A DNA stretch of 64,000 nt from Candidatus Woesearchaeota archaeon (GTDB taxonomy: Archaea > Nanobdellota > Nanobdellia > Pacearchaeales > GW2011-AR1), in NCBI GenBank assembly GCA_964530945.1, contig CAZHCJ010000002.1, forward strand, positions 14,899 through 78,898, given 5' to 3'. The position numbers and the translations under genes are program-made. The notes under the pieces were generated by a model. It searched no databases. It was not told where the DNA came from and worked only from the letters and a program-made list of their open reading frames with translations. How positions within the stretch are numbered: the first letter of the stretch is position 1; the number at the start of each line of letters is the position of its first letter. Of this stretch, positions 2,454-56,409 are shown in pieces.

Positions 2454-2460
2454 AATTAAA

Positions 2461-2751
2461 ATGGCTAAATCACAAAAGAAACAACAAAAACAACAACAGA
2501 AGAGTAAAAGTAGCGATAGGATTGTGGGGGAAAGTGCTGCTGCCATAGTTCAAGAGATTGTAGGACGCACTGGGTTTAGGGGAGAAATAACCCAAGTTAA
2601 ATGCCTTGTAACAGAAGGACGTGACAAAGATAGAATTATGAGACGTAATGTTAAAGGTCCTGTAAGAGTGGGAGATGTTTTAATGTTGAGAGAGACAGAA
2701 ATTGAAGCACGTAGAATTCGAAGCAAAGTTTCAAAAGGAGCGTATACATAA
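2461..2751 (+). CDS. rps28e: ribosomal protein S28e
   Basis: [57 protein letters not shown] is the S28e signature. Confidence 0.9.
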
Positions 2752-2752
2752 T

Positions 2753-2974
2753 ATGGCAAAAATATCTCTTTCAAAGATTTTAGAAAAAGGAATAATCCTT
2801 GAAAGAGGAGATGTTGTAGAATATATTCCTGGAGAAGAAGAGGATTCTTCGTCCGTATTGGGAGGAATAAGACAAGAGATAATTGAAGCAGGATATATTG
2901 TGGACAGTGGTAGAGGTCCAGATAAAGAGGGAAGATATAATTTTTTTATTGGAGGTAAGAGAGAAGATGCCTAA
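2753..2974 (+). CDS. hypothetical small protein between rps28e and rpl24e (74 aa from internal ATG)
   Basis: Track ORF 2702-2974 overlaps S28e; the ATG at 2753 gives a non-overlapping 74-aa product; no recognisable family. Confidence 0.3.
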   Translation: MAKISLSKILEKGIILERGDVVEYIPGEEEDSSSVLGGIRQEIIEAGYIVDSGRGPDKEGRYNFFIGGKREDA

Positions 2975-3670: not shown

Positions 3671-6133
3671 ATGGCTAAAAAATCAGATTATACAGGGAAA
3701 GACATTCATGTTTTAGAAGGGCTTGAAGGTGTTCGAAAACGTCCTGCAATGTACATAGGGGGAACGGGCAAAGACGGATTGCATCACATGATTTACGAGG
3801 TGGTGGATAATGCTGTAGATGAAGCTCTTGCGGGATATTGCAAAAAAATTCTTGTACGTATAAACAAAGATGGAAGTGTAACAATAGAAGATGATGGTAG
3901 GGGAATCCCTGTAGACAAACATCCTAAGTTGAAAATTCCTGCTGTCGAAGTCGCACTAACTAAGCTTCATGCAGGGGGAAAATTTGATAAAAAATCTTAT
4001 GAAATATCTGGAGGTTTGCACGGTGTTGGTATAAGTGTTGTTAATGCCTTGTCCAAGAAACTTGTTGTGGAGATTAAACGTGATGGGAAAATATACAGGC
4101 AAGAGTATAGGCGCGGAAAAAGAGAGAACGCACTGAAACCAGTGGGAAAAACAAAAGAGACAGGGACTAAAATTACATTCTGGCCAGATGAAGAGATTTT
4201 CTCAACACTGAAATTCGATTACCTAACTCTTCAAACACGTCTACGCGAAATAGTCTTCTTAAATGCGGGTTTGAAAATTTTGTTGGTTGATGAAGAAAAA
4301 AAGAAGAAAAAAGAGTTCTTTGCTTCTGGAGGATTAATAGAATTTGTTAAGTGGATAAACAAATCAAAAGATGTTTTACATAGTAAACCAATTTATTTTA
4401 AAAAAGTAGAAGGAGATAATGTTGTAGAAGTTGCAATCCAATACAATAATTCTTATCAGACAAATATATTTGGTTTTGTTAACACTATAAACACTGTTGA
4501 AGGAGGGACGCATGTATCTGGATTTAAATCTGGTTTAACCAGGGTAATAAATGATTATGTGAAGCGTAAGAATCTTCTTAAGACAGGCTCGCTCCATGGA
4601 AATGATGTTCGCGAAGGAGTTACAGCTATTATTAGTATAAAGATGAAAGAGCCCCAGTTCGAAGGACAAACTAAAACCAAATTGGGAAATAGTGAGATGA
4701 ACGGTATTGTCAATTCAATAATTACTCAATCATTGGGAGAGTTTTTTGAGGAAAATCCGAGCATTGCTAAGAAAATAACTTCCAAATCTATAGATTCTGC
4801 TAAAGCGCGTTTGGCTGCAAAAAAAGCCAAAGATCTTGTAAGAAGGAAGAACGCCTTTTCTCTTGGCGGCTTGCCTGGAAAACTTACGGATTGTTCAAGC
4901 AAAAAATCTGATCGCTCAGAAATTTATATTGTAGAAGGAGAAAGTGCTGGAGGTTGTTTTTCTGGAGAAACGAAGGTTGCTCTTACTGATGGAAGAGATA
5001 TTTCTTTTAAACAACTTGTTAAAGAAAATAAAGAAGGAAAAAAGAATTTTGTTTACACAATAATGAGAGATGGAAAATTAGGTATAGAGGAAATAAAAAA
5101 TCCAAGAATTACTAAAAAAAATGCTGAAGTAATTAAAATAATATTGGATAATGACGAAGAGATAGTTTGTACACCAGACCATAAATTTATGTTAAGAAAT
5201 GGAAATTATAAAGAGGCCGAACATTTAACGAAAAATGATTCTCTTATGCCTCTATATAGAAAACACTCTAAAATAGGGGAAAATATAACTATAGAAGGTT
5301 ACGAAATGGTACTTGACTCTAAAAGAAAATGGATATTTACCCACATGTTGGCAGACGAATACAATCTCCGAAATAAAATAGATGATAAAAAACAGATGTT
5401 AGAAGCAGTAAATGAATATAATCATAAAATAAAAAAAATCTTAAAATTAAAAAAGAAGATTGATGTTTATGATATGGAAATTCCAAATACACATAATTTT
5501 GCTCTTTCCTCTGGTGTTTTCGTGCATAATAGCGCAAAGATGGCGCGAAACAGAGAAATCCAGGCGATATTGCCATTAAGAGGAAAAATTCTTAATGTTG
5601 AAAAATCAACACCTGTAAAAGTTTTTTCAAACACTGAAATTGCGAACCTAATTACTGCAATAGGTGCGGGCGTAGGGGATGAATTTAATTTAGATAAAAT
5701 AAGATACAATAAAGTAGTCATCATGACTGATGCCGATGTTGATGGAGAGCATATCAAAACTCTGTTGTTAACCTTCTTCTTTAGGTTTATGCCTGAACTT
5801 ATTGAAAACGGGCATATTTATGTTGCTTTGCCTCCTTTGTATAGGATTAGGAAAGGTAACAAGGACAAATATGTTTACTCGGATAAAGAATTAGAAAAAG
5901 TTAAGAGCAAGCATAAAAATGTCAAAGTTACACGCTTCAAGGGTTTAGGAGAGATGAGTTCTAATCAGCTTTGGGACACGACAATGAATCCAAAAACCCG
6001 TAAAATCAAGAAGGTTTACATTGAAGATGCTGTTGAAGCAGATCAAACATTCAGTATGCTCATGGGGAGTGATGTCCAAGCCAGAAAAGAATATATTCAA
6101 GAAAATGCACAGGAGGCGACTTTAGACGTTTAA
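3671..6133 (+). CDS. gyrB: DNA gyrase subunit B, interrupted by a mini-intein (extein about 628 aa)
   Basis: GHKL ATPase N-terminus (HHMIYEVVDNAVDEALAG), Toprim EGESAGG|..|SAKMARNRE, PLYRIRKG and C-terminal QENAQEATLDV; 820 aa is about 190 aa longer than an intein-free GyrB. Confidence 0.92.
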   Translation: MAKKSDYTGKDIHVLEGLEGVRKRPAMYIGGTGKDGLHHMIYEVVDNAVDEALAGYCKKILVRINKDGSVTIEDDGRGIPVDKHPKLKIPAVEVALTKLHAGGKFDKKSYEISGGLHGVGISVVNALSKKLVVEIKRDGKIYRQEYRRGKRENALKPVGKTKETGTKITFWPDEEIFSTLKFDYLTLQTRLREIVFLNAGLKILLVDEEKKKKKEFFASGGLIEFVKWINKSKDVLHSKPIYFKKVEGDNVVEVAIQYNNSYQTNIFGFVNTINTVEGGTHVSGFKSGLTRVINDYVKRKNLLKTGSLHGNDVREGVTAIISIKMKEPQFEGQTKTKLGNSEMNGIVNSIITQSLGEFFEENPSIAKKITSKSIDSAKARLAAKKAKDLVRRKNAFSLGGLPGKLTDCSSKKSDRSEIYIVEGESAGGCFSGETKVALTDGRDISFKQLVKENKEGKKNFVYTIMRDGKLGIEEIKNPRITKKNAEVIKIILDNDEEIVCTPDHKFMLRNGNYKEAEHLTKNDSLMPLYRKHSKIGENITIEGYEMVLDSKRKWIFTHMLADEYNLRNKIDDKKQMLEAVNEYNHKIKKILKLKKKIDVYDMEIPNTHNFALSSGVFVHNSAKMARNREIQAILPLRGKILNVEKSTPVKVFSNTEIANLITAIGAGVGDEFNLDKIRYNKVVIMTDADVDGEHIKTLLLTFFFRFMPELIENGHIYVALPPLYRIRKGNKDKYVYSDKELEKVKSKHKNVKVTRFKGLGEMSSNQLWDTTMNPKTRKIKKVYIEDAVEADQTFSMLMGSDVQARKEYIQENAQEATLDV
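4955..5530 (+). mobile_element. mini-intein (192 aa) inserted in the GyrB Toprim motif EGxSAGG^S
   Basis: Begins with Cys right after EGESAGG (CFSGETKVAL, block A), has a TPDHKF block B and terminal ...NTHNFALSSGVFVHN, followed by +1 Ser (SAKMAR); too short for a LAGLIDADG endonuclease domain. Confidence 0.8.
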
Positions 6134-6735: not shown

Positions 6736-6993
6736 ATGGTAAAAGAACTAATAGAAAAATTTGAAGAATTGGATAAAATTATGAATTGCGATTTACCAGA
6801 TGAACTTCCGCAAGAGGTAGATGAGATGTTTCAAGCAGCATATAGATTATGGGGAAAATATAGGTTTAAGATTGAAAGGGGGAACAGAATAAGTTCCAGA
6901 GAAGAAAGAGAATTTTCAAATCTTTTAGATAATATAGAAGAAAGGTTTGAATACATTAGAGATGGTATCTATGGGGTGGTTTTTGCAAGATAA
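6736..6993 (+). CDS. hypothetical protein
   Basis: 85-aa ORF directly upstream of gyrA. Confidence 0.3.
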
Positions 6994-7003
6994 AAATATA
7001 AAA

Positions 7004-9457
7004 ATGACATCAAAAAAGAAAAAGGCGAAGGAAATTGCAACATTGTCAGAAAAAGATAATATAATTAACTCAGAGATATCTGAAGAAATGAAGAAGGCTT
7101 ATTTGGATTATGCGATGAGCGTCATTGTTTCTCGTGCTATTCCAAGTATTGAAGACGGATTGAAACCTGTGCAGAGAAGAATTTTACATAGTATGAATCT
7201 TATGGGTTTGAAGCCTGGGAGTCAAACAAAAAAATCCGCAAGAATTGTCGGAGATGTTATAGGTAAGTATCATCCTCATGGAGATAGCGCAGTGTATGAT
7301 GCCATGGTAAGAATGGCTCAAAACTTTTCTCTTAGGTATCCTTTAGTTTTTGGGCAAGGAAATTTTGGAAGCATTGATGGAGATGGTCCGGCTGCCTACA
7401 GATATACAGAAAGTCGTTTGATGCCCATAGCTAAAGAGCTGTTGGAAGACATAGATAAAAACACGGTTAAATTTGTTTCAAATTTTGACAACTCTCTCGA
7501 AGAGCCAAAACTTTTACCAGGAAAACTTCCTGCCCTTATTTTGAATGGGGCAACAGGTATTGCGGTTGGGATGAGCACAAACATTCCTCCCCATAACTTA
7601 AGCGAAGTTAGTGATGCAATAATCGAATACATAAAAAACCCAGATATTTCTATTGAAGAGCTTCATGAAATTGTGAAAGGTCCTGACTTTCCTACAGGGG
7701 GACACGTAACAGGAGATATTTTAAAAATATATCAAACTGGAAAAGGAAGGTTGACTATGCGCGGGCGTACAGAGATTGAGAAGAAAAAGAAAAAAGAACT
7801 TGTTGTTATAACAGAGATTCCTTATTTGCTTAACAAAACTACATTGATAGAACAAATTGCAAAGATAATTCAAGATAAAAAAATAAAGAATGTTAAAGAT
7901 TTGCGTGACGAGAGTTCAAAAGGCAAGATACGCATTGTTCTTGAATTGAAAAAAGGCACAAATCCTAAATTTGTTGTTAACTCACTTTATAAATATACTC
8001 GGTTGCAGGACTATTTCAATGTTAAAAATTTGGCGTTGGTTAGAGGGCAACCAAAAGTTTTGAGTTTGAAGGATTTTGTTTCTGAATATGTTGATTATAG
8101 AAAAAAGATAATTACCCGTAGCACACAATTTGATTTGAATCGTGCGGAACAGCGTTTAGAGATAGTTGAAGGATTAATGATTGCATTAAAAAATATAGAT
8201 AAAATTATTTCTTATATTAAAAAATCTAAAGGTGCAAAAGAAGCTGAAGAGGGTTTGATGAAAACCTATAAACTTAGTCAGAGGCAGGCTAAAGCAGTTT
8301 TAGAGACAAAATTACAGCAACTTACCTCTTTAGAACAAGATAAGCTAAAGAAAGAAAATGAAGAACTTTCAAATGCAATAAAAGAATTTAAGAAAATTTT
8401 AGGAAGTGAGAAAGAAATTTTAAAGATAATTACTAATGAAGTTAAAGATTTGAAGAAAAAGTATGGCGATGCTCGAAGGACAAATGTTTTGGATAAAATT
8501 AAGAAAATTTCTGAGAAAGATGTTGTTCAAAAGAAAGATGTTGTTATCACAATAACCGAGAAAGGATATTGCAAACGTATGGATTTAAATACCTATAGAG
8601 AACAACGTAGAGGAGGTAAAGGAGTAAGAGGAAGCAACCTTGCGACGGGGGATTTTGTAAAACAGTTAATCACGTGTTCTACACACGATTATTTAATGTT
8701 TTTCACAACTCGTGGACGTGTGCTTTGGTTGAAAGCGTACGATATTCCTGAAGCAATGAGGTATAGTAAAGGGAAAGCAATTGTGAATTTATTGAACTTA
8801 AAAAATGAGAAAATTACAAGTGTAATCCCTGTTAATAATTTTGATGATTTCTTGTTCATGGCTACAAAGAAAGGTCAAGTGAAAAAGATATCTCTTGAAA
8901 AATTCTCTAGGCCAAGAAAAGGAGGAATTAAGGCAATGAAACTTCCTAAAGACAACTCAGACATGTTGATAGATGTCAAAGTTGTTTCAAAAGATCATGA
9001 AGTGTTTTTAGCTACAAAGAAAGGTCAAGCAATTCGTTTTTCAAGCAAAGAGGTTAGGGACATGGGGCGTGCAAGTTATGGAGTTATAGGAATAAAACTA
9101 GCAAAGGGAGATGAAGTTGTAAGCCTAGAGGTGTTGGACGAGAGTGCAGGAGATGCAATACTTACTATAACAGAGAAAGGTTACGGTAAGAGAACGGCTT
9201 TGAAAAATTATAGAAAAATTTCTAGAAGTGGCAAGGGAGTAATAAATCTTAAAACTTCAAACGTCACAGGAGATGTTGTAACGACGAGTTTCGTTAATGA
9301 TAAGGATAGCATAATTATTACGACATATAAAGGAATGGTAATACGAACTACGTTGAAAAATATACGTCGCATGGGTCGCGCTACTCGTGGAGTACGTATT
9401 GTAAAGCTTCAACCAGGAGATAAAGCTACTGACTTGGTTAAAGTTCCTGAAGAGTGA
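7004..9457 (+). CDS. gyrA: DNA gyrase subunit A
   Basis: [11 protein letters not shown]...[39 protein letters not shown] active-site region, GyrA-box-like C-terminal beta-pinwheel repeats; start taken at ATG 7004 (MTSKKKK) rather than track start 6947. Confidence 0.92.
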
Positions 9458-11750: not shown

Positions 11751-12983
11751 TTAACCTTTGAGGATTTCTCCCCATCCAATAAGTCGCCAGTGCTTGTCTA
11801 TGTTTCTAGCCAAACCAACATTATCGCCGGGTAGAGGGATTATGGGAATGTTTAGTGACAACTCAATCTCTTTTTCATTTTTTGAAAGTTTTTCAATTAT
11901 TCCAACACTTATGGTGGTATTTGTGCTTAACATTAACATTTCTTTTGTTTTCAAAGGTTCTACTTTTTTGTGTCCTTTTATTCCTAAAATTTCTTTGAAA
12001 AGTTTCATGGAGATTTTTATTTTGTTCGATATTTCTGGAAGTTTTCCTTTTAGCGACACGAGCGAGCCAGAAAGCGAATCTGTTTTTGCTAAACTTGGAT
12101 CTAGACTAGTTTCAAGAGAGATGCTTGCTCCAGGTCCAACTTCTTTTACTTGTTCTTTGCCTTTATGTATGGAGAGTATCTTTGCGTTGATTGTTAAGTA
12201 CTCTTTTTTGTGAGCTTTTTCAACAGTTATTCCTGGTTTGAGCTCTATTTCATCACCAATTTTAAGAGTCCCTTTCTTTAAAATTCCTCCAAGCACGCCA
12301 CCCTTGATGTTTTTTATAGGGGTTCCTGGGCGGTTAATGTCGAAACTTCTTGCTACGAGGAAGATAGGGTCTGAATTTGTATCTCTTTTTGGGATGTCTA
12401 TATTTAGGATTTCTTCAAGTATTTTATTTATGTTTACTCCTTGTTGTGCAGAGACAGGGATTATTGGTGCGTTTTCAGCAATTGTGTCTTTGAGAAATTC
12501 TTTTATTTCTTTATGGCTTTCTAAAGCACGTTTTTTGTCAACTAAATCTATTTTGTTTTGAACAACAATAATATTTTTTATTTTTTTTGCTTGTAAGGCC
12601 ATAAAATGTTCCCTTGTTTGGGGTTTTATTCCTTCATTTGCCGCAATTACAAGAATTGCTGCATCCATTGTTGCAGCTCCCGAAAGCATTGTAGCCATTA
12701 GCATTTCGTGTCCAGGGGCGTCTACAAAACTCACATAACGAAGAGGTTTCGCTTTTTTAGTGTCTTTTGGTTTTACGGTCAATTCCTCTTTTTCGGTTTT
12801 GTAAATAGTCATATCTGCATAACCTAATTTAATTGTTATTCCTCGTTTGAGTTCTTCTGAATGTGTGTCAGTGAACTTTCCGGAAAGTTGACTAAGAAGA
12901 GTAGTTTTCCCGTGGTCAATGTGTCCCACTACACCAATATTTATTTCTGGAATTTTCTTAGTTTTTGTATCGGATTTAGCCAT
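11751..12983 (-). CDS. eif2g: translation initiation factor aIF2 gamma subunit
   Basis: NIGVVGHIDHGKTTL...TDTHSEELKRGITIKLGYA, NKIDLV, domain II/III colinear with aIF2-gamma; 410 aa; zinc knuckle absent. Confidence 0.9.
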   Translation of the reverse strand: MAKSDTKTKKIPEINIGVVGHIDHGKTTLLSQLSGKFTDTHSEELKRGITIKLGYADMTIYKTEKEELTVKPKDTKKAKPLRYVSFVDAPGHEMLMATMLSGAATMDAAILVIAANEGIKPQTREHFMALQAKKIKNIIVVQNKIDLVDKKRALESHKEIKEFLKDTIAENAPIIPVSAQQGVNINKILEEILNIDIPKRDTNSDPIFLVARSFDINRPGTPIKNIKGGVLGGILKKGTLKIGDEIELKPGITVEKAHKKEYLTINAKILSIHKGKEQVKEVGPGASISLETSLDPSLAKTDSLSGSLVSLKGKLPEISNKIKISMKLFKEILGIKGHKKVEPLKTKEMLMLSTNTTISVGIIEKLSKNEKEIELSLNIPIIPLPGDNVGLARNIDKHWRLIGWGEILKG

Positions 12984-30318: not shown

Positions 30319-30732
30319 ATGGGAAACGAAACAATTGAGAATATTAATGAGGAAAGAAAAGAGAAAGAAATGCAACAAGATGTAGAGCCTTCTCAAATAC
30401 CTCAAGTTCCACCTGAAGAAAGCGGGGTTCCTCAACAACCCGGAACACAAATCCCTCCTACGCAACAATCAGAAGAAGGGCAATCCCCAGTACATCAATC
30501 TCAACAAGTCCAACAAGAAGAATCTCAACAAGCTTTGACTCAACAGCAGCCTGGACAGATTCCTGCACTTCCCGAGAAATCAGAGGTTCAGATAGAGACA
30601 GAAAAAGATGCAGTTAGGGAAAAACAAGAAGAGAAAGTTCAGAAGGAATCACAAACTCAAGAGCAAAATGTTGAACAGCAATTACGAATGGAAGAACAAA
30701 CATCTCAACAGAACCAGGAAAGACAAGAGTAA
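30319..30732 (+). CDS. Gln/Glu-rich low-complexity (disordered) protein
   Basis: Q/E/P-rich throughout. Confidence 0.4.
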   Translation: MGNETIENINEERKEKEMQQDVEPSQIPQVPPEESGVPQQPGTQIPPTQQSEEGQSPVHQSQQVQQEESQQALTQQQPGQIPALPEKSEVQIETEKDAVREKQEEKVQKESQTQEQNVEQQLRMEEQTSQQNQERQE

Positions 30733-32538: not shown

Positions 32539-32628
32539 ATATATCTAGGATATTGCCATATTTAAGTGTTTTGTTTTTGCTTATGCGAACTTGCAGGAGT
32601 TTTTAGAAAATCAACAAGAGAAGAAAAA

Positions 32629-32831
32629 TCCCTCCACCAAGATTCGAACTTGGGATCTCCCGGGGACTGCGTTGTTTTTTGAACGTGCGAGTCTCGAAAG
32701 ATTGACTAATCAGGCTTCATAGAATTTCCCTTGTGGGAATCTCCACCCTAGTTTAACACTACAGCCAGGCGCTCTAACCATTGCTCCTTTTCCAGAGTTT
32801 TTACATCTAAAAAAGTCTGAGCTATGGAGGG
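32629..32831 (-). tRNA. candidate tRNA-Tyr (anticodon GTA) split by two introns: about 36 nt in the D-loop and about 95 nt after the anticodon
   Basis: Minus-strand 5' CCCTCCA TA GCTCAG[...]TGGTTAGAGC G CCTGG CTGTAG[...]C CCGGG AGAT CCAAG TTCGAAT CTTGG TGGAGGG A; C1-G72 pair and A73 are archaeal tRNA-Tyr identity elements; BHB motifs not verified. Confidence 0.5.
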
Positions 32832-32918
32832 ATTATTTTTGTTACCCACTTAGTTTTGGGTAATCCTTAAAGGTAAGGATAGAAAGAGAAGTTATTTAGG
32901 TTTTTTAAGGTTTTTTGT

Positions 32919-47591: not shown

Positions 47592-48305
47592 ATGTCTGAA
47601 GAAAATACAATAACGTTCAAAAAAGATACTCTATGGAAAGTTGGAACAGCTGTGTTTGCTATTCTTTTTGTATTTGCATTGCTCGGCGGATTCGGCTCAT
47701 TAGGAAGTAGTTCAGGAGCCGTTGTCGATGACAAAGATGCAGGACAACAAGATGATGTGAATGCAAAAGCTCTTATTGAAGATAATGATCCTGTTTTAGG
47801 AAATGAAGATGCTGAAGTTTCAATCGTCGAATTTAGCGATTTTCAGTGTTCATTTTGCGCGAGAGCCCATACAGGAGCGATGGCTGATTTTAAGGCAAGT
47901 AGTTATTTTACCAATGGTGAAGTAAATTTTGTTTACAAGCATTTGCCTTTGAATAGCATTCATCCACAAGCTCAAGAAGCTGCAGAAGCTTCATTATGTG
48001 CTCAAGACCAAGAATCTTTCTGGGAATACCATGATATGCTTTTCGCAAATCAAGGAGCTCTAGATACAAGTAGTTTGAAATCTTATGCTGCACAACTTGG
48101 ACTCGACACAGGAGAGTTTAATGAGTGTCTTGATAGTGGAGAAAAAGCTTCCGAGGTTAATAAAGAGACGGCTCAAGCAACTTCTGCTGGAGCGAGAGGA
48201 ACACCTTATTTCCTTGTTGTTAACACAAAAACGGGAGATGCTACAAGTGTTTCAGGAGCAGTTCCATTTTCACAATTCGAGACCGCAATTAATGCGGTTC
48301 TTTAA
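47592..48305 (+). CDS. DsbA-like thiol:disulfide oxidoreductase, membrane-anchored (copy 1)
   Basis: SD AAAGGAGG; N-terminal TM; FSDFQCSFCARAH CxxC in a thioredoxin fold; cis-Pro region GTPYFLV. Confidence 0.7.
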   Translation: MSEENTITFKKDTLWKVGTAVFAILFVFALLGGFGSLGSSSGAVVDDKDAGQQDDVNAKALIEDNDPVLGNEDAEVSIVEFSDFQCSFCARAHTGAMADFKASSYFTNGEVNFVYKHLPLNSIHPQAQEAAEASLCAQDQESFWEYHDMLFANQGALDTSSLKSYAAQLGLDTGEFNECLDSGEKASEVNKETAQATSAGARGTPYFLVVNTKTGDATSVSGAVPFSQFETAINAVL

Positions 48306-48374
48306 TTTTTTATTTTTAAGAATATTTTTTATTTTTTTGCTTAAGTTTAAATAAACAAAATAACAGAAACTAGT

Positions 48375-48890
48375 ATGAAAAAATCACGTAAAAGAAGAAT
48401 AAAGAATGCATTTAGAGGTCGCTATTTAGTACTTTTTGTATTATGGTTTTTAGCATATGTTGCATTAAATGTCTATTTTAATGAATTATATGTTAGTCTG
48501 GAAATATGGAGCTCATACAATCAATTATTTCTAATTCCTTTTGTATTGTTCAACTTCTTAATTGTTCCTTTTCTTATTTCTCTAACAGTAAATCTTAGCA
48601 TTTTGCGTTTCAAAGAAGCAGGAAGTGGTTTTGGAGATAGAAGTGCATCAGGAGTTGGAGGTGTTGGGGCTTTGATAGGAATTGTTGCCGGCGCTTGCCC
48701 GGGATGTTTTGTCGGTTTGTTTCCCGCAGTTTTAGGTATTTTTGGAGTAAGTGCAACGCTTTCTGCCTTGCCTTTATTCGGGTTGGAATTACAAGTGCTT
48801 TCTTCTGCTCTCTTGTTGTTGGCCATATATTTGTTAACCAAAGATATTGTTTGCGAAGTTCCTTTGGAGATGAAAGGAGGTGACAAGTAA
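48375..48890 (+). CDS. membrane protein with intramembrane CPGC motif
   Basis: GIVAGACPGCFVGLFPAVLG inside a hydrophobic helix. Confidence 0.4.
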   Translation: MKKSRKRRIKNAFRGRYLVLFVLWFLAYVALNVYFNELYVSLEIWSSYNQLFLIPFVLFNFLIVPFLISLTVNLSILRFKEAGSGFGDRSASGVGGVGALIGIVAGACPGCFVGLFPAVLGIFGVSATLSALPLFGLELQVLSSALLLLAIYLLTKDIVCEVPLEMKGGDK

Positions 48891-49295
48891 ATGAATAGAA
48901 AATTAATTTTAGGAATAGGTGTAATTGTGGTGGTGTTTGTTTTGTTTTTTGCTTTTGCAGGAAATGAATCTCAAGGTGATGTTGTTTCTGAATCAGAAGA
49001 AAATCAGGCGAGTACACGGGCTGTGAAGGAGTTCGATGTTGTTGCTAGAAATTGGGAATTCGTTCCAGGAACGATAGAGGTGAATCAAGGAGACAGGATT
49101 GTGTTGAATGTTGAAAGTGTGGATGGGGATCATGGAATAATGATTTCTGAATTTGGAGTAAACGAGCACTTGTCTCCCGGAGAAGAAACAATGATAGAGT
49201 TTGTTGCAGACAAGAAAGGAACATTCACGTTTTTTTGTAATGTTTATTGTGGGGCAGGACACTCTAATATGAGAGGAGAGCTTATTGTGAGATAA
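48891..49295 (+). CDS. membrane-anchored cupredoxin-domain protein with CuA-type copper ligand pattern
   Basis: H (DGDHGIMI) ... FCNVYCGAGHSNM = C-x3-C-G-x2-H-x2-M as in COX II/N2OR CuA; SD GGAGGTG upstream. Confidence 0.6.
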   Translation: MNRKLILGIGVIVVVFVLFFAFAGNESQGDVVSESEENQASTRAVKEFDVVARNWEFVPGTIEVNQGDRIVLNVESVDGDHGIMISEFGVNEHLSPGEETMIEFVADKKGTFTFFCNVYCGAGHSNMRGELIVR

Positions 49296-49296
49296 A

Positions 49297-49701
49297 ATGA
49301 AATACCTCATAATACTCGTTTTGTCATTGCTTGGATTTTTCTTAGCTGGCTACATAAATCTTAAAACGGAAAGGAAAGAAAAGCTTGTTTGTGTTATTGG
49401 AAATGATTGCAATAAAGTTATAAAGAGCAAATATGGAAAAACTTTTGGTATGGACAACACTTTTCTTGGGATGATTTATTATCTTGTTGTTTTGATTTTG
49501 GCTCTTGACGTTTTGATTTTTCCTTGGATAGTTAGCGTTGGTTTGTTTTACTGGGTGTTTTTTCTCATCACTTTGGGAGCTGCCCTTTTCTCTGTGTATC
49601 TAACCATTATACAATTGTTTGTAATTAAAGAGTTGTGTGAGTATTGCCTTCTTACGGCTTTAAACACAATATTAATATTTGTACTGTTTATTGTTTTGTA
49701 A
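49297..49701 (+). CDS. VKOR-family (vitamin K epoxide reductase-like) membrane thiol oxidoreductase, the DsbB-analog partner of DsbA-like proteins
   Basis: Loop Cys pair CVIGNDC, SKYGKTFGM, and CEYC CxxC at the start of the last TM. Confidence 0.6.
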   Translation: MKYLIILVLSLLGFFLAGYINLKTERKEKLVCVIGNDCNKVIKSKYGKTFGMDNTFLGMIYYLVVLILALDVLIFPWIVSVGLFYWVFFLITLGAALFSVYLTIIQLFVIKELCEYCLLTALNTILIFVLFIVL

Positions 49702-49702
49702 A

Positions 49703-50293
49703 ATGAAATTTTCAAAAAAAGAAACCAAAGATTTGACGTTTGCCGGAATAATGATTTCTTTAGCTTTTGCCATACTTCTTGCAGGAGGATTCAATATTTT
49801 AAGTGAAGGGTTTTTCAGTGTTTTCATAATTGCGTTTTTTACCGCCGGAATTGGGTTTTTATTGCATGAACTGATGCATAAATTTGTTGCTCAGCGTTAT
49901 AAAATGTGGGCAGAGTTTCGTGCAGATTATAAAATGCTTTGGGTTGCAATAGCTTTCGCATTTTTCGGATTTATTATTGCGGCACCAGGAGCAGTTTACA
50001 TTCGTGGAAGAATCACAAATGAAAAAAATGGGAAGATTTCTCTTGCAGGTCCTATGACAAACCTAGTACTTGCGATTTTGTTTTTAATTCCTTTACTTTT
50101 AGTTAGTTTTAGTTCGCAAATTCTCTATGCGTTTTTCAGTTTTGGCTTAACAATTAATTCTTTGCTTGCGGCATTTAACATGATTCCGGTTATGCCTTTT
50201 GACGGTGCAAAGATAATAAAATGGAATAAAGAATGGTATTACTTTACTTTGCTTGCAGGGGTCGGCCTTTTTATTCTGAGTTTTGTGGTTTGA
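49703..50293 (+). CDS. site-2 protease family (M50) intramembrane zinc metalloprotease
   Basis: HELMHK inside TM and downstream AAFNMIPVMPFDGAKI (LDG-type third ligand motif). Confidence 0.6.
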   Translation: MKFSKKETKDLTFAGIMISLAFAILLAGGFNILSEGFFSVFIIAFFTAGIGFLLHELMHKFVAQRYKMWAEFRADYKMLWVAIAFAFFGFIIAAPGAVYIRGRITNEKNGKISLAGPMTNLVLAILFLIPLLLVSFSSQILYAFFSFGLTINSLLAAFNMIPVMPFDGAKIIKWNKEWYYFTLLAGVGLFILSFVV

Positions 50294-50326
50294 TAGTTTT
50301 ATAAACGCTTTTGATTATTTTAAAAA

Positions 50327-50818
50327 ATGGAAAATAAGCATGTGGGTTATCTTGTTTTAGGAATCGCTGTTGTTTTAGTTGGAATCATATTCTTATATCA
50401 AAACGCTATGCAAGAGATAGTTTATCTTAGCTGTGGTTTAGAACACAGTGTTACATGTCCCATGAATCAAACCATAATGCAACAAACCTATTTGGCCTTG
50501 GGAATTGTAGGTATTTTAGTAGTTATTGCTGGTCTGTTAATATTTAGCAAACCTAAAGAGAGAATCATTGTTAAAGAAAAGAAAGTTAAAGTTAAAGAAA
50601 AACGTAAAAGGCCAAGTGTTAAAGACCTAAGTGCTAAGGAGAAAAAAGCCTTGGATTTGATTGAAAAAGAAGAAGGCGCGATGTTCCAATCTGAACTGAA
50701 AGAAAAGCTAGATATAGGAAAAGTCGGAATGACTCGCCTTTTAGATAAACTTGAAGCTAAACAATTCTTGGAAAGGAAAAGAAGAGGAATGAATAACATT
50801 GTTGTGCTGAAGTATTAG
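50327..50818 (+). CDS. membrane-tethered winged-helix transcription regulator with extracytoplasmic Cys pair (copy 1)
   Basis: TM1, loop SCGLEHSVTCPMNQ, TM2, K/R-rich then wHTH ...MTRLLDKLEAKQFLERKRRGMNNIVVL. Confidence 0.55.
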   Translation: MENKHVGYLVLGIAVVLVGIIFLYQNAMQEIVYLSCGLEHSVTCPMNQTIMQQTYLALGIVGILVVIAGLLIFSKPKERIIVKEKKVKVKEKRKRPSVKDLSAKEKKALDLIEKEEGAMFQSELKEKLDIGKVGMTRLLDKLEAKQFLERKRRGMNNIVVLKY

Positions 50819-50861
50819 TTGCTTACGAAAAGTTTAAATAAAAGTAAGATTAATCTTATTT

Positions 50862-51080
50862 ATGAAAATAGACACAACGAAGATGAGTTCTAGAGGACAA
50901 ATAGTTATTCCTAGAGATTTACGCGAAGGCATAAATGCAGGAGAAAAATTGATAGTTATAAGGAAAAAAGACGAAATAATATTGAAAAAATCACTTCCTG
51001 AGAATGCCTTATGGTCTGAAAAATCTTTGTCAAAAACGTGGCTGAATAAAGAGGAAGACGAAATATGGAAAGATTTGTGA
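50862..51080 (+). CDS. mazE: MazE/AbrB-family antitoxin
   Basis: MSSRGQIVIPRDLRE. Confidence 0.6.
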   Translation: MKIDTTKMSSRGQIVIPRDLREGINAGEKLIVIRKKDEIILKKSLPENALWSEKSLSKTWLNKEEDEIWKDL

Positions 51081-51397
51081 AAGGAGATGTTGTTGTCATG
51101 GATTTCCCTTTTTCTAATTTAAAAAATTCTAAAAGAAGACCTGCGCTGGTGATTAAAGTTCCTAAAGGAGATGATTTAATTGTATCTCAAATAACAGGAA
51201 AATCTTATGAAGAAGATTTAGAAATTGAGATTACAAAGAAAGATTTTGCAAAAGGTAAGTTGAAAGTAAACAGCTATCTTAGAATAGATAAATTTTTTTC
51301 AATTGAGAAATATCTTATCAAATATAAAATCGGAAAGTTAAAACCTAAGAAATTTAATGAGATAATTGATTCCATAATCGATTTTTTGAAAAAGTGA
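51065..51397 (+). CDS. mazF: MazF/PemK-family toxin (mRNA interferase)
   Basis: KGDVVVMDFPFSN...RPALVIKV matches the MazF N-terminal core; overlaps the antitoxin. Confidence 0.65.
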   Translation: MERFVKGDVVVMDFPFSNLKNSKRRPALVIKVPKGDDLIVSQITGKSYEEDLEIEITKKDFAKGKLKVNSYLRIDKFFSIEKYLIKYKIGKLKPKKFNEIIDSIIDFLKK

Positions 51398-51498
51398 TTT
51401 TTTTTCTATTTTGGGATGGTTTTATCTAAAACCTTCAAAAAGTTCCATGTAACTAGTTACACCGAAGCGGTTATAATAAATGATTTCTTGGGTTTTGC

Positions 51499-52128
51499 AT
51501 GGTTAAGAAAAAATCAACAGGCAAAAAAACAGATTGGGAGTTTTATGCTCAGATAGGAGTTGTAGTAATATTAGCTGGCATATTGATATATTCTTTAAAT
51601 CTTCCTAGTGTTTCTGCTTCAGGAGTTATTCCTACCGGAGTTCCAGAGGTTTATGGAGAAGAGCTCGGTATTACATATGATGATGTTTCACCTCAAAACC
51701 AGCAACTTGCTGATAAAACTATAAGATTACTTGGCAACATAGATCGTTTGGAAACTCTTGACGAATCTAAGATGGGGCGTTACATAAACATATTGTATAG
51801 TATGAATAATGGAATCTCTTGTGAGTATTGTTGTGGGGCTCGTTCAGTAATATTTGAAAACGGACAACCGGCCTGTGGGTGTGCACATAGTTATGCTATG
51901 CGTGGTCTGACAAAATACTTGTTAATAAATCATCCTGATATGAATGATGAACAGATACTTGAAGAAGTAGGGAAATGGAAAACATTATTTTTCCCCGGAA
52001 TCATTCAAGGTAAAGCAGATATAATGGAAAGCCAAGGACTTGATACGGATTATTTGAGTTTGACAACAAATAAGTATAGAGGAATAGAGCAAGGGCAGGT
52101 AAGCGGAGGAATGATTGGCGCTTGTTAA
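51499..52128 (+). CDS. membrane-anchored secreted Cys-rich protein ending in ...SGGMIGAC
   Basis: TM near N-terminus; CEYCCGARS...CGCAHS; C-terminal tail shared with the next small ORF. Confidence 0.45.
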   Translation: MVKKKSTGKKTDWEFYAQIGVVVILAGILIYSLNLPSVSASGVIPTGVPEVYGEELGITYDDVSPQNQQLADKTIRLLGNIDRLETLDESKMGRYINILYSMNNGISCEYCCGARSVIFENGQPACGCAHSYAMRGLTKYLLINHPDMNDEQILEEVGKWKTLFFPGIIQGKADIMESQGLDTDYLSLTTNKYRGIEQGQVSGGMIGAC

Positions 52129-52146
52129 TTAAATTCGAGGAGGAAA

Positions 52147-52317
52147 AATGAAAATAAATAAAGATAAGGCTAGAGTTGCATTGTGGGTCGTGATAGGAGT
52201 GCTTTTGCTTGCTGTAGTGTATGTGGTGTTTTTCAAAGACGCATCAACAGCTTCAACACTAAGCGCTAATTCAGGACAAGCTGCAAGTGCTTATAGCGGA
52301 ATGGTTGGTGGCTGTTA
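52147..52317 (+). CDS. small membrane-anchored peptide (56 aa) ending in ...SGMVGGC
   Basis: SD GAGGAGG 6 nt upstream; below the track size cutoff; C-terminal motif matches the preceding protein. Confidence 0.35.
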
Positions 52318-52381
52318 AAACTTTTAAAAGTTTTAACTCAGAGGATTGGTTTGAGATAAAACTAACTTTCAGACAAATAAA

Positions 52382-52861
52382 ATGAACAAAAAATTTTTAA
52401 TAGGAATGGGAGTATTGGCATTAATCTTTTTAGTCGTAGTCTTACTCCCAAGTCCAAGTGCTGCAGATTATGAAAATATTAATGCTGTTGAAAGCGAGAT
52501 AGAAATTTATAAATCGGCTACATGTGGGTGCTGTGGAATTTACACAAGCTATTTTGACGGAAAAACAAGTCCAGATATAGAATCTTTGAATGTTCAAGAT
52601 ACTTATTCTATTAAAAGAGAACACGGCGTTCCTCCTGAATTAGAAAGTTGCCATACTACCTTAATTGATGGATACTTTGTTGAAGGACATATTCCTTTAG
52701 AAGCTATTGAAAAACTTTTATCTGAAAAACCGGATGTTGCAGGAATTGCTATGCCCGGAATGCCTTCTGGAAGTCCAGGAATGCCAGGGCCTAAAAGAGG
52801 AGATTTTGTAATATACAGTGTAAACCATGATGGAAGCTATCAAGAGTTCATGAGGATATAG
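52382..52861 (+). CDS. DUF411-like (CopG-type) periplasmic metal-binding protein
   Basis: Signal peptide; CGCCGIY motif, CHTTLIDGYFVEGHIP, Met/Pro-rich GIAMPGMPSGSPGMPGP. Confidence 0.55.
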   Translation: MNKKFLIGMGVLALIFLVVVLLPSPSAADYENINAVESEIEIYKSATCGCCGIYTSYFDGKTSPDIESLNVQDTYSIKREHGVPPELESCHTTLIDGYFVEGHIPLEAIEKLLSEKPDVAGIAMPGMPSGSPGMPGPKRGDFVIYSVNHDGSYQEFMRI

Positions 52862-52870
52862 TTAGGAAAA

Positions 52871-53398
52871 ATGGATAAAAAACTTTTTTCTTTATTTTTT
52901 GGATGGATTTTTTTAATATCTTTTTCTAAATTAGTTTCTGCACATTGTCCCTTGTGTACTATTGGAGCTGGGGCGGCCGCAGGAGCAGCTGTTTGGTTAG
53001 GGATTAGCAAAGTTGTAGTTGCATTGTTTATTGGGGCTTTTGCAATGTCAATGGGGATATGGTTTTCAAATATTAAATATTTGAAAAAGAAACGTTTTCC
53101 TTTCCAGAAAACCCTAATTGTTTTAGGTGTCTTTCTTTTGACATTCATTCCTTTATTGCCCATAATTAGCGCAATAGGTCCATTGTATTTGTCTTTTATT
53201 GGAGAATATGGAACAACTTACGCCTTTAATTACTCTATTTTAAGTGGGCTTTTTGGAGGGATTTTAGTTTTTTCAGCCCCAGGTTTAAGCAAAAAATTAA
53301 CCCAACTAAGAAAAGGAAAAATGCTTCCTTTCCAAGGAATCTTGATAACATTCTCATTGTTAATCTTCACAGGGGGGCTTATACAAGTTTTAATTTAA
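52871..53398 (+). CDS. membrane protein with N-terminal HCPLC motif
   Basis: SAHCPLCTIGAGAAAGAAV then several TM. Confidence 0.4.
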   Translation: MDKKLFSLFFGWIFLISFSKLVSAHCPLCTIGAGAAAGAAVWLGISKVVVALFIGAFAMSMGIWFSNIKYLKKKRFPFQKTLIVLGVFLLTFIPLLPIISAIGPLYLSFIGEYGTTYAFNYSILSGLFGGILVFSAPGLSKKLTQLRKGKMLPFQGILITFSLLIFTGGLIQVLI

Positions 53399-53824
53399 AT
53401 GGAAATTTTAACACTTGTTTTGCTTGGAGTTATTCTATTATTTTTTATATTTTTAGCAATGAAAAACCTAATCGGAAGTGAAAGGATTTGTGCAATATGC
53501 TTTTCAGTTCTGTTCACTTGGATATTTTTACTTCTAGGGTATTTTTGGGGGTTGTTTTTCAATAAAATAATAATAGCCATTTTGATGGGGATGAGTGTGT
53601 TAGGAATATATTATGTTGCCGAGAAAAAAGTCAAAAAAAGATTCTTGGTTTTTAGGTTGCCTTTTTTACTGACATTAATATTTGTTGTTTATTTTGTTTT
53701 AGAAGAATTTATTTTAGAAAGTTTTATTTTATTAGGCGTTTTATGGGTATTTTTCATCCTAATTTATTCATTCAAATTTAATGGATTTGCAAAAAAACTT
53801 GTGGAGTGCTGCAAAAAATGGTAA
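53399..53824 (+). CDS. membrane protein, C-terminal CCKKW
   Basis: Hydrophobic ORF. Confidence 0.35.
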   Translation: MEILTLVLLGVILLFFIFLAMKNLIGSERICAICFSVLFTWIFLLLGYFWGLFFNKIIIAILMGMSVLGIYYVAEKKVKKRFLVFRLPFLLTLIFVVYFVLEEFILESFILLGVLWVFFILIYSFKFNGFAKKLVECCKKW

Positions 53825-54279
53825 AGAGAAAAAGCAATAATGGGAACAGCAATGCAGTTTTATATGGTGTGTTGGCAGGTGTAGGATTGTTAGTATTTTA
53901 TGTTTTAGTTGTTTCTCTTTTTCAAAGCGTGGATTTCGCTCTTTTGAATATTAGAAGTTTGTGGTATTTGGTCATTCCTTTGGTAATAGGTTTTGGAACG
54001 CAAATAGGTCTTTATAGCTCAATACGTCACACTGCTACTGTCACGGGAACCGCTGCGGCCACGGGAGGGATTTCTGCAGGAGGAATGTTAGCATGTTGTA
54101 GCCATTTCCTTTTGAACATAATTCCTTTGGCAGGAGCATCTGGTTTGGCTATATTTCTTATGAAATACCAGCCTGCATTTCTTGGAGTGGGAATTGCTTC
54201 AAGTATTTTTGGAATTGGATTGATGGTTAAGCATAAAAAATCTATGAAAAAAGGTTTGAAAGGAGGTAAATGTCATTAA
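53806..54279 (+). CDS. membrane protein with intramembrane ACCSH motif
   Basis: GGISAGGMLACCSHFLLNIIPLAG; C-terminal GGKCH. Confidence 0.4.
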   Translation: MLQKMVKRKSNNGNSNAVLYGVLAGVGLLVFYVLVVSLFQSVDFALLNIRSLWYLVIPLVIGFGTQIGLYSSIRHTATVTGTAAATGGISAGGMLACCSHFLLNIIPLAGASGLAIFLMKYQPAFLGVGIASSIFGIGLMVKHKKSMKKGLKGGKCH

Positions 54280-54813
54280 ATGAATAAAAAAATTTTACTT
54301 TATGGTGCTTTAGGTTTGGTGGTTTTAGTCTTAGCCCTTTTCACAATTTTTCCAGGAATGATTTATGCAGTAAAAGATGCCGGAATTACAGGGAATAGTC
54401 TTTCAAATTCTACAAATGACAAATGTTCTCCTGCTCCAGGTTATGATGAAGAATCATGGAGAGAACACATGAGTCATCATCCAAATATATACAAAGAGTG
54501 TTTTGTCTCTGATCTAGAAAGTGATGAATTTGAAGAATTTGTCGAAAGTGATAATGTTTTCATAATAAACACTCATACCCCGTATATTGGGGAAATAGAA
54601 GGAACAGATTTGATTGCTAAAGACTGGCAAAATATAGCCTCTTATGAAGATCAGTTGCCAGAAAATAAGAATGCACCTATAGGGGTTTATTGTAGAAGTG
54701 GAAGTATGTCTTCGAGTGCTGCTAGCCAATTAATTGATTTGGGCTATACAAATGTTTACAATCTTGAAGGTGGAATGAATGCCTGGCGGGATTCAGGAAG
54801 AACTTTGATTTAA
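54280..54813 (+). CDS. membrane-anchored rhodanese-domain sulfurtransferase
   Basis: IGVYCRSGSMSSSAASQLIDLGYTNVYNLEGGMNAW (active-site Cys loop). Confidence 0.7.
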   Translation: MNKKILLYGALGLVVLVLALFTIFPGMIYAVKDAGITGNSLSNSTNDKCSPAPGYDEESWREHMSHHPNIYKECFVSDLESDEFEEFVESDNVFIINTHTPYIGEIEGTDLIAKDWQNIASYEDQLPENKNAPIGVYCRSGSMSSSAASQLIDLGYTNVYNLEGGMNAWRDSGRTLI

Positions 54814-54870
54814 CTTATTTTTATTAATTTAAATAAGAAGTTTTATTAATTAATCTTAGTTCTTGCTTTT

Positions 54871-55365
54871 ATGAAACCTCGTTATTTGGGTATATCCATT
54901 GTCATTGTTAGCCTTGTTGTTTTAGGGGGCCTCTTTTATCTTAATTCTAGTTTAAATAAACAGAACTTTGAGAATTGTATAACTTCTTGCGAAATGCAGG
55001 AAAACACTTCATGTTCCGTAGAATCATGTAATTTGGAAAGAGGCCATAATGATTTTGAGGAATTTATCTCTATATTAGAAATTTTAGTTGCGTTCCTTGC
55101 AGGAATAGGATTTTACCTTTCTTTAACAAAAAAAGAAAAGATAATTGAACAGAAAGAATATGATTTGAGTAAATTAAACAAAGAAGAAAAAAGGGTTTTT
55201 TTGCTTGTTAAGAAAAATAAAGAAAAAGGGATTTATCAAAGTAATATTGTAAAAGAGTTTGATTTTTCAAAATCTAAAGTGACTCGGATATTAGATCGTT
55301 TAGAACAATCTAAACTGGTTGAGAGAAAAAGGCGCGGGATGACAAATCTTATTGTCCTTAAATAA
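54871..55365 (+). CDS. membrane-tethered winged-helix regulator with extracytoplasmic 4-Cys segment (copy 2)
   Basis: TM1, NCITSCEMQENTSCSVESC, TM2, wHTH ending ERKRRGMTNLIVLK (same ending as copy 1). Confidence 0.55.
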   Translation: MKPRYLGISIVIVSLVVLGGLFYLNSSLNKQNFENCITSCEMQENTSCSVESCNLERGHNDFEEFISILEILVAFLAGIGFYLSLTKKEKIIEQKEYDLSKLNKEEKRVFLLVKKNKEKGIYQSNIVKEFDFSKSKVTRILDRLEQSKLVERKRRGMTNLIVLK

Positions 55366-55424
55366 AATCAGTTTCAGGTGTAAAACTAGTTTCACGTTAT
55401 ATTTATAAACCGTTTTTTTAAGTC

Positions 55425-55643
55425 TTGTGTATGAAAAAAGAGATTGTTGTCTTGAATATAAAAAATATTGATGTTAATCATTGTCTTGCTCTTCCAGAGT
55501 TGGGAATTAATGAAGAATTAATTCCTGAAAAAAAGATTGCAGTTGAGTTTGTTGTAGATAAAAAAGGAAGTTTTACATTTTTTTATAATGTTTATTATGG
55601 AGCAGGGCATAACTCAGTGAGTAGGAGATTGATAGTAAAATAA
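55425..55643 (+). pseudogene. degenerate remnant of the CuA-type cupredoxin (copper ligands lost)
   Basis: VEFVVDKKGSFTFFYNVYYGAGHNSVSRRLIV aligns with IEFVADKKGTFTFFCNVYCGAGHSNMRGELIV of 48891-49295 with both Cys replaced by Tyr and Met by Val; N-terminal cupredoxin barrel missing. Confidence 0.45.
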
Positions 55644-55662
55644 AGATGAAAGGAGGTTTAAT

Positions 55663-56409
55663 ATGTCGAAAGAAACAATTACATTAAAAAGAGACACTTT
55701 GTGGAAAGTTGCTACAGGTATTTTTGCGTTATTATTTATAGTTGCATTGTTTTCGGGAGGGCTTAATTTTTCGGGACCTGATAGTCAAGGAACTTCAGGA
55801 AACAGCGTGGTTCAACAACCAAATCAACGGCCTTCAATAGTGGAAGCTAGTGTTGATGATGATCCTGTTTTTGGAAATGAAAATGCTCCTGTAACAATGA
55901 TAGAATTTAGTGATTACCAGTGTCCTTTTTGTAGAAAATTCTGGACAGAAACATTACCACAAATAAAATCAGAATATATTGATACAGGTAAAGTTAAATT
56001 TGTTTACCGTGATTTTCCTTTGAATAGTATACATCCAAGTGCCCAGGCAGCGGCAGAAACTGCTGAATGTGTGAGAGATAACTATAGTGAAGATGCTTAT
56101 TGGGAAATACATGATAAGATTTTCTCAGAGCAAAATATTCTTGATGGAGGAGACCCTATAATAGGTCCTGTAAAAGGAACAGTGCAATTTAGTGAAAATG
56201 ATCTAAAGAATTGGGCAAGTGATCTAGGATATGAAATAGGAGGTTGTCTTGATTCTGGAAAATTCACGAGCGAAGTTCAAAAAGATATTACTGATGCAAC
56301 AGCCGCAGGAGGTCGTGGAACACCATATTTTGTCATTAATGGTCAACCATTGAGCGGAGCACAACCTTTTAGTTCATTTAAGCAGGTAATTGATGCAGAA
56401 TTATCTTAA
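55663..56409 (+). CDS. DsbA-like thiol:disulfide oxidoreductase, membrane-anchored (copy 2)
   Basis: SD AAAGGAGG; FSDYQCPFCRKFW; same architecture as copy 1 (ITLKRDTLWKVATGIFALLF). Confidence 0.7.
   Translation: MSKETITLKRDTLWKVATGIFALLFIVALFSGGLNFSGPDSQGTSGNSVVQQPNQRPSIVEASVDDDPVFGNENAPVTMIEFSDYQCPFCRKFWTETLPQIKSEYIDTGKVKFVYRDFPLNSIHPSAQAAAETAECVRDNYSEDAYWEIHDKIFSEQNILDGGDPIIGPVKGTVQFSENDLKNWASDLGYEIGGCLDSGKFTSEVQKDITDATAAGGRGTPYFVINGQPLSGAQPFSSFKQVIDAELS

Follow-up and report, generated by a model that had tools for sequence, protein, structure and literature searches.

A twice-interrupted tRNA-Tyr(GUA) gene of a DPANN archaeon and a conserved kink-turn-like module in its long intron

The minus strand of the 64-kb stretch of DNA analyzed in this study (the window) carries a tRNA-Tyr(GUA) gene at positions 32629-32831, which consists of three exons (15, 22, and 36 nt) and two introns (36 and 94 nt). 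Exon 1 (32831-32817, minus strand; CCCTCCATAGCTCAG) encodes tRNA nucleotides 1 to 15, comprising the 5′ strand of the acceptor stem (CCCUCCA), U8 A9, the 5′ strand of the D stem (GCUC), and A14 G15, and is supported by cloverleaf covariation. Intron 1 (32816-32781, minus strand) lies in the D-loop between nucleotides 15 and 16 and is bounded by a relaxed bulge-helix-bulge (BHB) motif of the HBh′ type, which is supported by the minimum free energy (MFE) fold and by conservation. Exon 2 (32780-32759, minus strand; TGGTTAGAGCGCCTGGCTGTAG) encodes nucleotides 16 to 37, which include the remaining D-loop, the 3′ strand of the D stem (GAGC), G26, the 5′ strand of the anticodon stem (CCUGG), and C32 U33 G34 U35 A36 G37. 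Intron 2 (32758-32665, minus strand) occupies the canonical 37/38 site within a strict hBHBh′ motif. Exon 3 (32664-32629, minus strand; CCCGGGAGATCCCAAGTTCGAATCTTGGTGGAGGGA) encodes nucleotides 38 to 73, composed of C38, the 3′ strand of the anticodon stem (CCGGG), the variable loop (AGAUC), the T arm (CCAAG-UUCGAAU-CUUGG), the 3′ strand of the acceptor stem (UGGAGGG), and A73. Exon 3 ends in A73, and CCA is not encoded at the 3′ end of the gene. No open reading frame (ORF) of at least 60 aa overlaps the gene. The 5′ and 3′ pieces quoted in the original prediction are found on the minus strand where it had located them, but the distance from exon 1 to exon 3 is 152 nt rather than the ∼130 nt that had been given.

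The joined exons form a 73-nt sequence that ARAGORN names tRNA-Tyr(gta), and deletion of intron 1 alone leads ARAGORN -i to report a tRNA-Tyr with a 94-nt intron. The anticodon GUA is placed within a 7-nt loop (CUGUAGC) with U33, and the class-I cloverleaf features are present (a 5-nt variable loop, U8, A14, G18 G19, and the T loop UUCGAAU). The pair C1-G72 together with A73 is the identity set of archaeal and eukaryal tyrosyl-tRNA synthetases, and the tyrosine identity claimed from these nucleotides and the anticodon is borne out by the spliced product. A set of 18 distinct homologous tRNA-Tyr precursors was assembled from scans of genomes and metagenomes with the 3′ exon and from loci syntenic with homologues of the upstream gene. 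In silico splicing yields exactly 73 nt for all 18 precursors. Across the 8 distinct spliced sequences all 21 stem pairs are formed (100%), 7 of the cloverleaf pairs are changed on both sides and are spread over all four stems, and C1, G72, A73, and the loop CUGUAGC are invariant (8/8). None of 500 shuffles equaled this pairing and covariation. The analysis confirms, far beyond chance, that positions 32629-32831 of the minus strand contain a real tyrosine tRNA gene.

An intron-less tRNA-Tyr is encoded at the same syntenic position in L019 (11436-11506) and L020 (9752-9822; Pacearchaeota, GCA_023137045.1), also with the loop CUGUAGC. Since this ortholog shares the loop, it fixes the 37|38 junction independently and identifies C38 as native. 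It also indicates that neither the long intron nor the module that it contains (described below) is universal and that the module is dispensable.

In its native form, the gene is missed by gene finders, as the original prediction had anticipated. ARAGORN calls no tRNA here, either by default or with the -i option, and the Rfam tRNA model does not detect the gene at the gathering score or at E values up to 10 (searched in 32560-32900); the weak Rfam matches in that interval belong to unrelated lncRNA families. The one-intron relatives are affected in another way: ARAGORN -i calls the tRNA-Tyr genes of L001, L003, L004, L005, L006, L017, L021, and L036 Asp, Asn, or Phe because the program displaces the intron boundary. 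The BHB geometry and the intron-less ortholog indicate that the anticodon in these misnamed genes is GUA.

The two introns that had been proposed, one in the D-loop and one of about 95 nt in the anticodon loop, are both recovered, and BHB geometry is present at both junctions, strict at 37/38 and relaxed in the D-loop. The first of the two conditions under which the original prediction would have been refuted, a lack of BHB motifs at the junctions, is therefore contradicted. At the 37/38 site, the anticodon stem provides the outer helix, the central helix is formed by C32 to U35 (CUGU) with the intron strand GCAG (32667..32670, minus strand; conserved pairing), and the inner helix is GUU/AAC. 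The bulges are 3 nt each, A36 G37|U on one side and U C|C38 on the other, which gives a 4-bp central helix with opposite-strand 3-nt bulges and flanking helices, as in the strict hBHBh′ definition. This geometry is retained throughout the family: the 3-nt bulges and the central helix are kept in 18/18 genes, C38 invariably occupies the third place of the 3′ bulge (18/18), and intron positions n-5 to n-2 read GCAG, ACAG, AUAG, GCGG, or GUAG, all of which pair with CUGU (18/18). The length of the long intron ranges from 64 to 136 nt over the 18 genes.

At the D-loop site, the central helix pairs G10 to C13 (GCUC) with GAGC near the 3′ end of intron 1, the bulges are A14 G15|A at the 5′ site and A A|U16 at the 3′ site, and the inner hairpin comprises 10 bp. 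The unconstrained MFE fold of the precursor reproduces this helix-bulge-helix exactly. The motif is classified as relaxed because an outer helix is impossible, with A9 opposite G17, and cleavage at this site would depend on an endonuclease of broad specificity. Excision restores the D-loop AGUGGUUA, as found in uninterrupted relatives. The 36-nt intron is shared, at the identical 15/16 site, by L013 (GCA_964503975.1) and L010, a metagenome contig, both of the Pacearchaeota/Woesearchaeota type, so that the two-intron form occurs in 3 of the 18 homologues; the remaining 15 carry the long intron only. All 14 pairs of the intron 1 helix are kept in these three genomes, with 2 double and 4 single compatible changes, and L013 additionally has a compensatory change in the T stem. 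The nearest counterpart of the L010 long intron is found in L002, a locus without the D-loop intron, and this suggests that the D-loop intron was gained or lost recently.

A TATA-like element (CTTTAAGGA, core CTTTAAGG; 32864..32872, minus strand) is read directly ∼40 nt upstream of tRNA position 1 and may act as the promoter; TTTAAAA is found at -30 to -33 in 10 of the 18 homologous genes. The position at -40 in the window is explained by a 22-nt palindrome (TTACCCAAAACTAAGTGGGTAA; 32842-32863, minus strand) that lies between the TATA-like element and the tRNA and displaces the element. A run of five T residues (32624..32628, minus strand) immediately follows A73 and is likely an archaeal transcription terminator, and at least 4 T residues directly follow the gene in 9/18 homologues. 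In some relatives, a stretch of ∼60 nt lying between the tRNA and its TATA-like box is conserved (AAGCTTGTGCAGGRGCTTAG...TTTCAAGTTTATAA...GGGGATTTATA; L001, ∼5420-5510; L003, ∼1270-1350, minus strand), and it could represent a leader or another small RNA.

The window has a G+C content of 34% and includes genes for a thermosome subunit, aIF2-gamma, ribosomal protein S6e, Kae1, SerRS, and Dph2; the aIF2-gamma, S6e, Kae1, thermosome, and Dph2 genes identify it as archaeal chromosomal DNA. Exact matches of the 3′ exon are confined to metagenome-assembled genomes (MAGs) labeled Woesearchaeota or Pacearchaeota, and the named homologues of the 466-aa gene just upstream are assigned to Pacearchaeota, Nanoarchaeota, or simply archaeon. 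The host is a DPANN lineage, and these relatives place it in a group known for disrupted tRNA genes, in line with the statement of the original prediction that multiple noncanonical introns characterize some archaeal lineages: DPANN endonucleases with an L3 loop accompany many disrupted tRNA genes, and the tRNA sets of these archaea have been reported as incomplete (PMC5829648). No gene for a splicing endonuclease or a modification enzyme was found among the 39 ORFs scanned in the window. Other features of the window include a 137-aa ORF (30319-30732, plus strand) that is extremely Q/E/P-rich, of low complexity, and without a Pfam family, and a run of small same-strand thiol/redox genes (47592-56409, plus strand) encoding two DsbA-like thioredoxins, VKOR, cupredoxin, rhodanese, and DUF411, together with two MarR-like regulators.

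Synteny around the gene is not universal; L014 ends short of the site, and in L015 and L016 a different gene lies immediately downstream. Incomplete copies of the tRNA-Tyr 5′ end occur upstream of the intact gene in L004 (∼2440-2780, minus strand), L007 (∼6900-7090, plus strand), L005 (4010-4110, plus strand), L013 (3840-3860, plus strand), and L042 (∼4415-4435, plus strand). Those of L004 and L007 are tandem units, and in L013 an HNH/LAGLIDADG ORF (3892-4695) is located between the partial copy and the tRNA-Tyr gene. These copies look like scars of site-specific integration at tRNA-Tyr. L006 (3360-3384, plus strand; 2314-2469, minus strand) has, in addition to a tRNA-Tyr of its own with the acceptor CCCCUCA, an isolated 3′ fragment from another tRNA-Tyr at a distance of ∼1 kb, and the flank of this fragment equals the 3′ flank of the L009 gene. 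In addition, a palindromic element of ∼40 nt, GGG(A/C)ACCAAGGTTCCCCTTA...CCCCTCC, is found inside the L018 intron (∼12610-12660) and upstream of the L005 tRNA-Tyr (∼4020-4080) and may be a small mobile element.

All 18 long introns have in common a conserved block of ∼50 nt, located in the window at 32702..32751 (minus strand) and delimited by a covariance model and by covariation over the 18 sequences. It reads CUAGGGU-G-GA-G-AUUCCC(ACAA)GGGAAAUU-C-UAU-GA-A-GCCUGA-UU-AGUCAA. The 5′ strand of this module consists of a stem (GGY), R, and G-A and leads into a hairpin, after which the 3′ strand continues with one paired nucleotide, a 3-nt bulge (N-A-U), G-A, A, and the stem partner (RCC). Both GA steps keep their G and A without exception, and the bulge is always 3 nt (18 sequences). 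The pair flanking the bulge, which is the first pair of the C-stem, is GC in 8, UA in 8, and CG in 2 sequences (100% paired), and the basal (NC) stem covaries as well, with GC in 16 and UA in 2 at one pair and UA, UG, and CG at another; the second layer of the C-stem is irregular, with a bulge of 1 to 2 nt. The covariation score of the module was matched by none of 500 shuffles and collapsed in slid registers. These features are the signature of an L7Ae/15.5K-type kink-turn, with the noncanonical pairs proposed from the nucleotide pattern. We take the bulged strand N-A-U G-A to resemble the C box and the kink-turn of U4 snRNA.

The covariance model (R1) scored the window module at 60 bits (E value, 2e-11) and matched each tRNA-Tyr intron once wherever an intron-bearing locus was searched (18 distinct sequences), with no match elsewhere in ∼400 kb of the window and loci, the intron-less L019 included. 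A degenerate pattern of the module gave 10 matches in viral contigs, which are chance matches in coding DNA and were rejected by the covariance model. No Rfam family resembles the intron 2 module, and no description of a kink-turn in a tRNA-Tyr intron was found in the full-text literature searched.

The module is followed by an antisense stretch, AGUCAA in the window (32702..32707, minus strand), which is complementary to tRNA nucleotides 33 to 29 (5 pairs). Across the 18 sequences, this stretch (AGYCAR(G)) always starts 2 nt past the basal helix of the module, without indels, and is complementary to the tRNA from nucleotide 33 down to 27 or 28, with 6 to 7 pairs in most relatives and 7 bp in five. 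Positions 29 to 33 are paired in 18/18. At position 28, the pair is C:G in 9 sequences and U:A in 4, and all four genes with U28 carry A in the intron; these U28:A cases may come from one lineage and thus represent a single evolutionary event. The site 27-33 is the top-scoring one within the tRNA in 13/18 (tied with one other position in two of these), and nucleotides 14 to 20 of the D-loop fit the antisense stretch better than nucleotides 27 to 33 in 5/18, the window included. The antisense helix cannot coexist with the anticodon stem or the BHB. Of the 7 precursors folded, 4 are predicted to adopt this helix in their MFE structure; the window and L002 favor the BHB form, which in L003 comes within 1 kcal/mol of the MFE. 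The antisense stretch is a putative functional element.

Collectively, the locus is best read as a functional twice-interrupted tRNA-Tyr(GUA) gene of a Pacearchaeota/Woesearchaeota-type DPANN archaeon, spliced at two BHB sites and bearing the module in its long intron, a reading in which we have high confidence. The conserved exons and junctions are direct observations, and expression, cleavage, and ligation are modeled on the established archaeal pathway. Transcription of the minus strand from the TATA-like element would produce a precursor of ∼203 nt in addition to a short leader. Cleavage by the archaeal splicing endonuclease would then remove 36 nt from the D-loop (15/16) at the relaxed site and 94 nt from the anticodon loop (37/38) at the strict site, after which an RNA ligase would assemble exons 1 to 3 into a class-I tRNA of 73 nt that bears the tyrosine identity set of archaea. 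The long intron is not simply a spacer: its predicted hairpin carries a kink-turn of the L7Ae-bound kind, and the stretch antisense to the 5′ strand of the anticodon stem lies a fixed distance beyond it. This stretch may transiently open the anticodon stem and present G34 to G37, or it may instead time the formation of the BHB.

A decaying tRNA-Tyr pseudogene, broken by two insertions and backed by a working tRNA-Tyr elsewhere in the genome, is a highly improbable explanation of the same sequence. The span of this genome searched for tRNAs is the 64 kb of the window, and the tRNA-Tyr loci of relatives do show integration scars and partial gene copies; but the two insertions fall exactly into BHB frames, the exon sequences do not differ from those of relatives whose genes look functional, and a search of the window for partial tRNA copies found none. 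In addition, three genomes retain the two-intron form, in which the intron helix and T stem show compensatory changes, and the promoter-like element and terminator-like run are kept. We thus regard the gene as functional, and the remaining alternatives concern what the module in its long intron does. We tentatively propose, at somewhat below even confidence, that the L7Ae-bound module keeps the precursor's anticodon region in place, or makes it available, for a step that precedes splicing, either a modification near positions 32 to 37 or the timing of BHB formation. It is also possible, if less probable, that the module is purely structural or protein binding, for example, a folding aid or a stabilizer of the excised and possibly circular intron, with a coincidental complementarity to nucleotides 27 to 33. 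By our estimate, a 5-nt match somewhere in a 73-nt tRNA arises by chance about one time in five, the D-loop fit is equal or better in 5/18, the BHB conformer has the lowest predicted energy in the window and L002 and nearly so in L003, and the intron is dispensable in L019 and L020, all of which would agree with a structural role. The invariant spacing of the antisense stretch speaks against coincidence, as do its retention in 18/18, its extension to 7 bp in five sequences, and its tracking of the change from C28 to U28.

Two known classes of guide RNA bear partial likenesses to the module. Stand-alone H/ACA RNAs act on pre-tRNA-Tyr in Sulfolobales, and a cis-acting H/ACA-like half guide could place U35 for pseudouridylation by Cbf5 and L7Ae, replacing or assisting Pus7. 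The kink-turn has the matching orientation, with a 6-layer helix between the G.A pairs and the start of the 3′ antisense stretch, and the intron 2 module agrees with the rule that the K-turn lies 5 to 6 bp from the pseudouridylation pocket (PMC2651775). Pairing of the antisense stretch involves the 5′ strand of the anticodon stem and stops two nucleotides short of U35, but strict application of the rule makes G34, not U35, the first unpaired nucleotide; moreover, there is no 5′ guide strand (and no room for one in L002, L008, L010, and L033), no lower stem, and no ACA/ANA box ∼14 nt downstream or at a fixed distance. We consider this half guide improbable. A degenerate box C/D guide like that of the tRNA-Trp intron, which would direct ribose methylation of C32, appears very improbable. 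The kink-turn has the D′-loop-C′ arrangement (YRGA ... AUGAAR), exactly 12 nt separate the C′-like box from the end of the complementarity without indels in 18 sequences, and a D box placed next would make C32 the fifth paired nucleotide. However, no conserved CUGA (D box) follows the 12-nt spacer in the 18 introns, and no C box (RUGAUGA) is located upstream, where the module begins only 1 nt into the intron in L002, L008, L010, and L033. Further, A.G is found here at the position that is U.U in C/D motifs, no Rfam C/D family matches, and the sequences on either side of the kink-turn covary and are paired to one another, which makes them a stem and not a guide. Finally, the module could be a new type of cis-acting guide, in which a single L7Ae-bound kink-turn and an antisense stretch of 5 to 7 nt open the anticodon stem; we judge this unlikely, although less so than either of the known guide classes. 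Were it true, G34 to G37 would become accessible, at a set distance from the kink-turn, to a modification such as Ψ35, or splicing would be gated. Such a guide would fall outside both the box C/D and the H/ACA class, might be similar to a minimal ancestor of these guides, and would make this the second archaeal tRNA intron, after that of tRNA-Trp, to act on its own tRNA.

Archaeal tRNA genes with multiple introns, including noncanonical BHB introns, have been found in Thermoproteales and other groups with SPLITS and tRNAscan-SE 2.0 (PMC4033280 and PMC4090602). The gene described here is similar in having two endonuclease-type introns, one strict hBHBh′ intron at 37/38 and one relaxed intron elsewhere, and in being unseen by finders that expect a single canonical intron. 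Unlike the known cases, its host is a Pacearchaeota/Woesearchaeota-type DPANN archaeon, its canonical intron measures 64 to 136 nt in the family compared with the usual median of 12 to 25 nt, and its D-loop intron is patchy, being present in L010 and absent from L002 despite the most similar long intron. The tRNA-Trp intron, in which a box C/D RNA is nested, is an exception to the short introns of archaea and was termed a unique example by a review (PMC4090602). The euryarchaeal tRNA-Trp intron, a box C/D guide for Cm34 and Um39, resembles the present one as a long 37/38 intron with an L7Ae-type kink-turn and complementarity to its own anticodon arm; here, in contrast, the tRNA is tRNA-Tyr, C/D boxes are absent, and there is only one kink-turn, whose flanks form a covarying stem.

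The H/ACA sRNAs Sso1, Sto1, Sac1, Mse2, and Ape7 guide Ψ35 in intron-containing pre-tRNA-Tyr (PMC2651775). The module shares with Sso1-type sRNAs the anticodon stem-loop of pre-tRNA-Tyr as its target and the series of K-turn, ∼6-bp helix, and 3′ antisense element. Those sRNAs are encoded by genes of their own and possess the complete pocket, lower stem, and ACA box, whereas the element described here lies within the intron of its own substrate and has no 5′ guide, lower stem, or ACA box.

In eukaryotes, the tRNA-Tyr intron is present throughout, is needed for Ψ35, and is linked to m1A58. The long intron described here is similar as a conserved 37/38 intron predicted to pair with the anticodon region; the eukaryotic introns are short and without a kink-turn, unlike this one. 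As an archaeal tRNA gene interrupted twice, the locus belongs to a kind already known, and the kink-turn module in its long intron is undescribed in the literature searched. A gene of this form would cause tRNA-Tyr to be scored as missing from the genome, and the one-intron relatives can receive the wrong name; both effects distort tRNA censuses of DPANN archaea and estimates of genome completeness. The patchy distribution of the D-loop intron suggests that intron gain or loss is still ongoing in the group, and the gene is of value for annotation and for following intron turnover among DPANN archaea. The module, in turn, offers a testable candidate for a functional archaeal tRNA intron beyond tRNA-Trp, in a tRNA whose intron eukaryotes universally keep.
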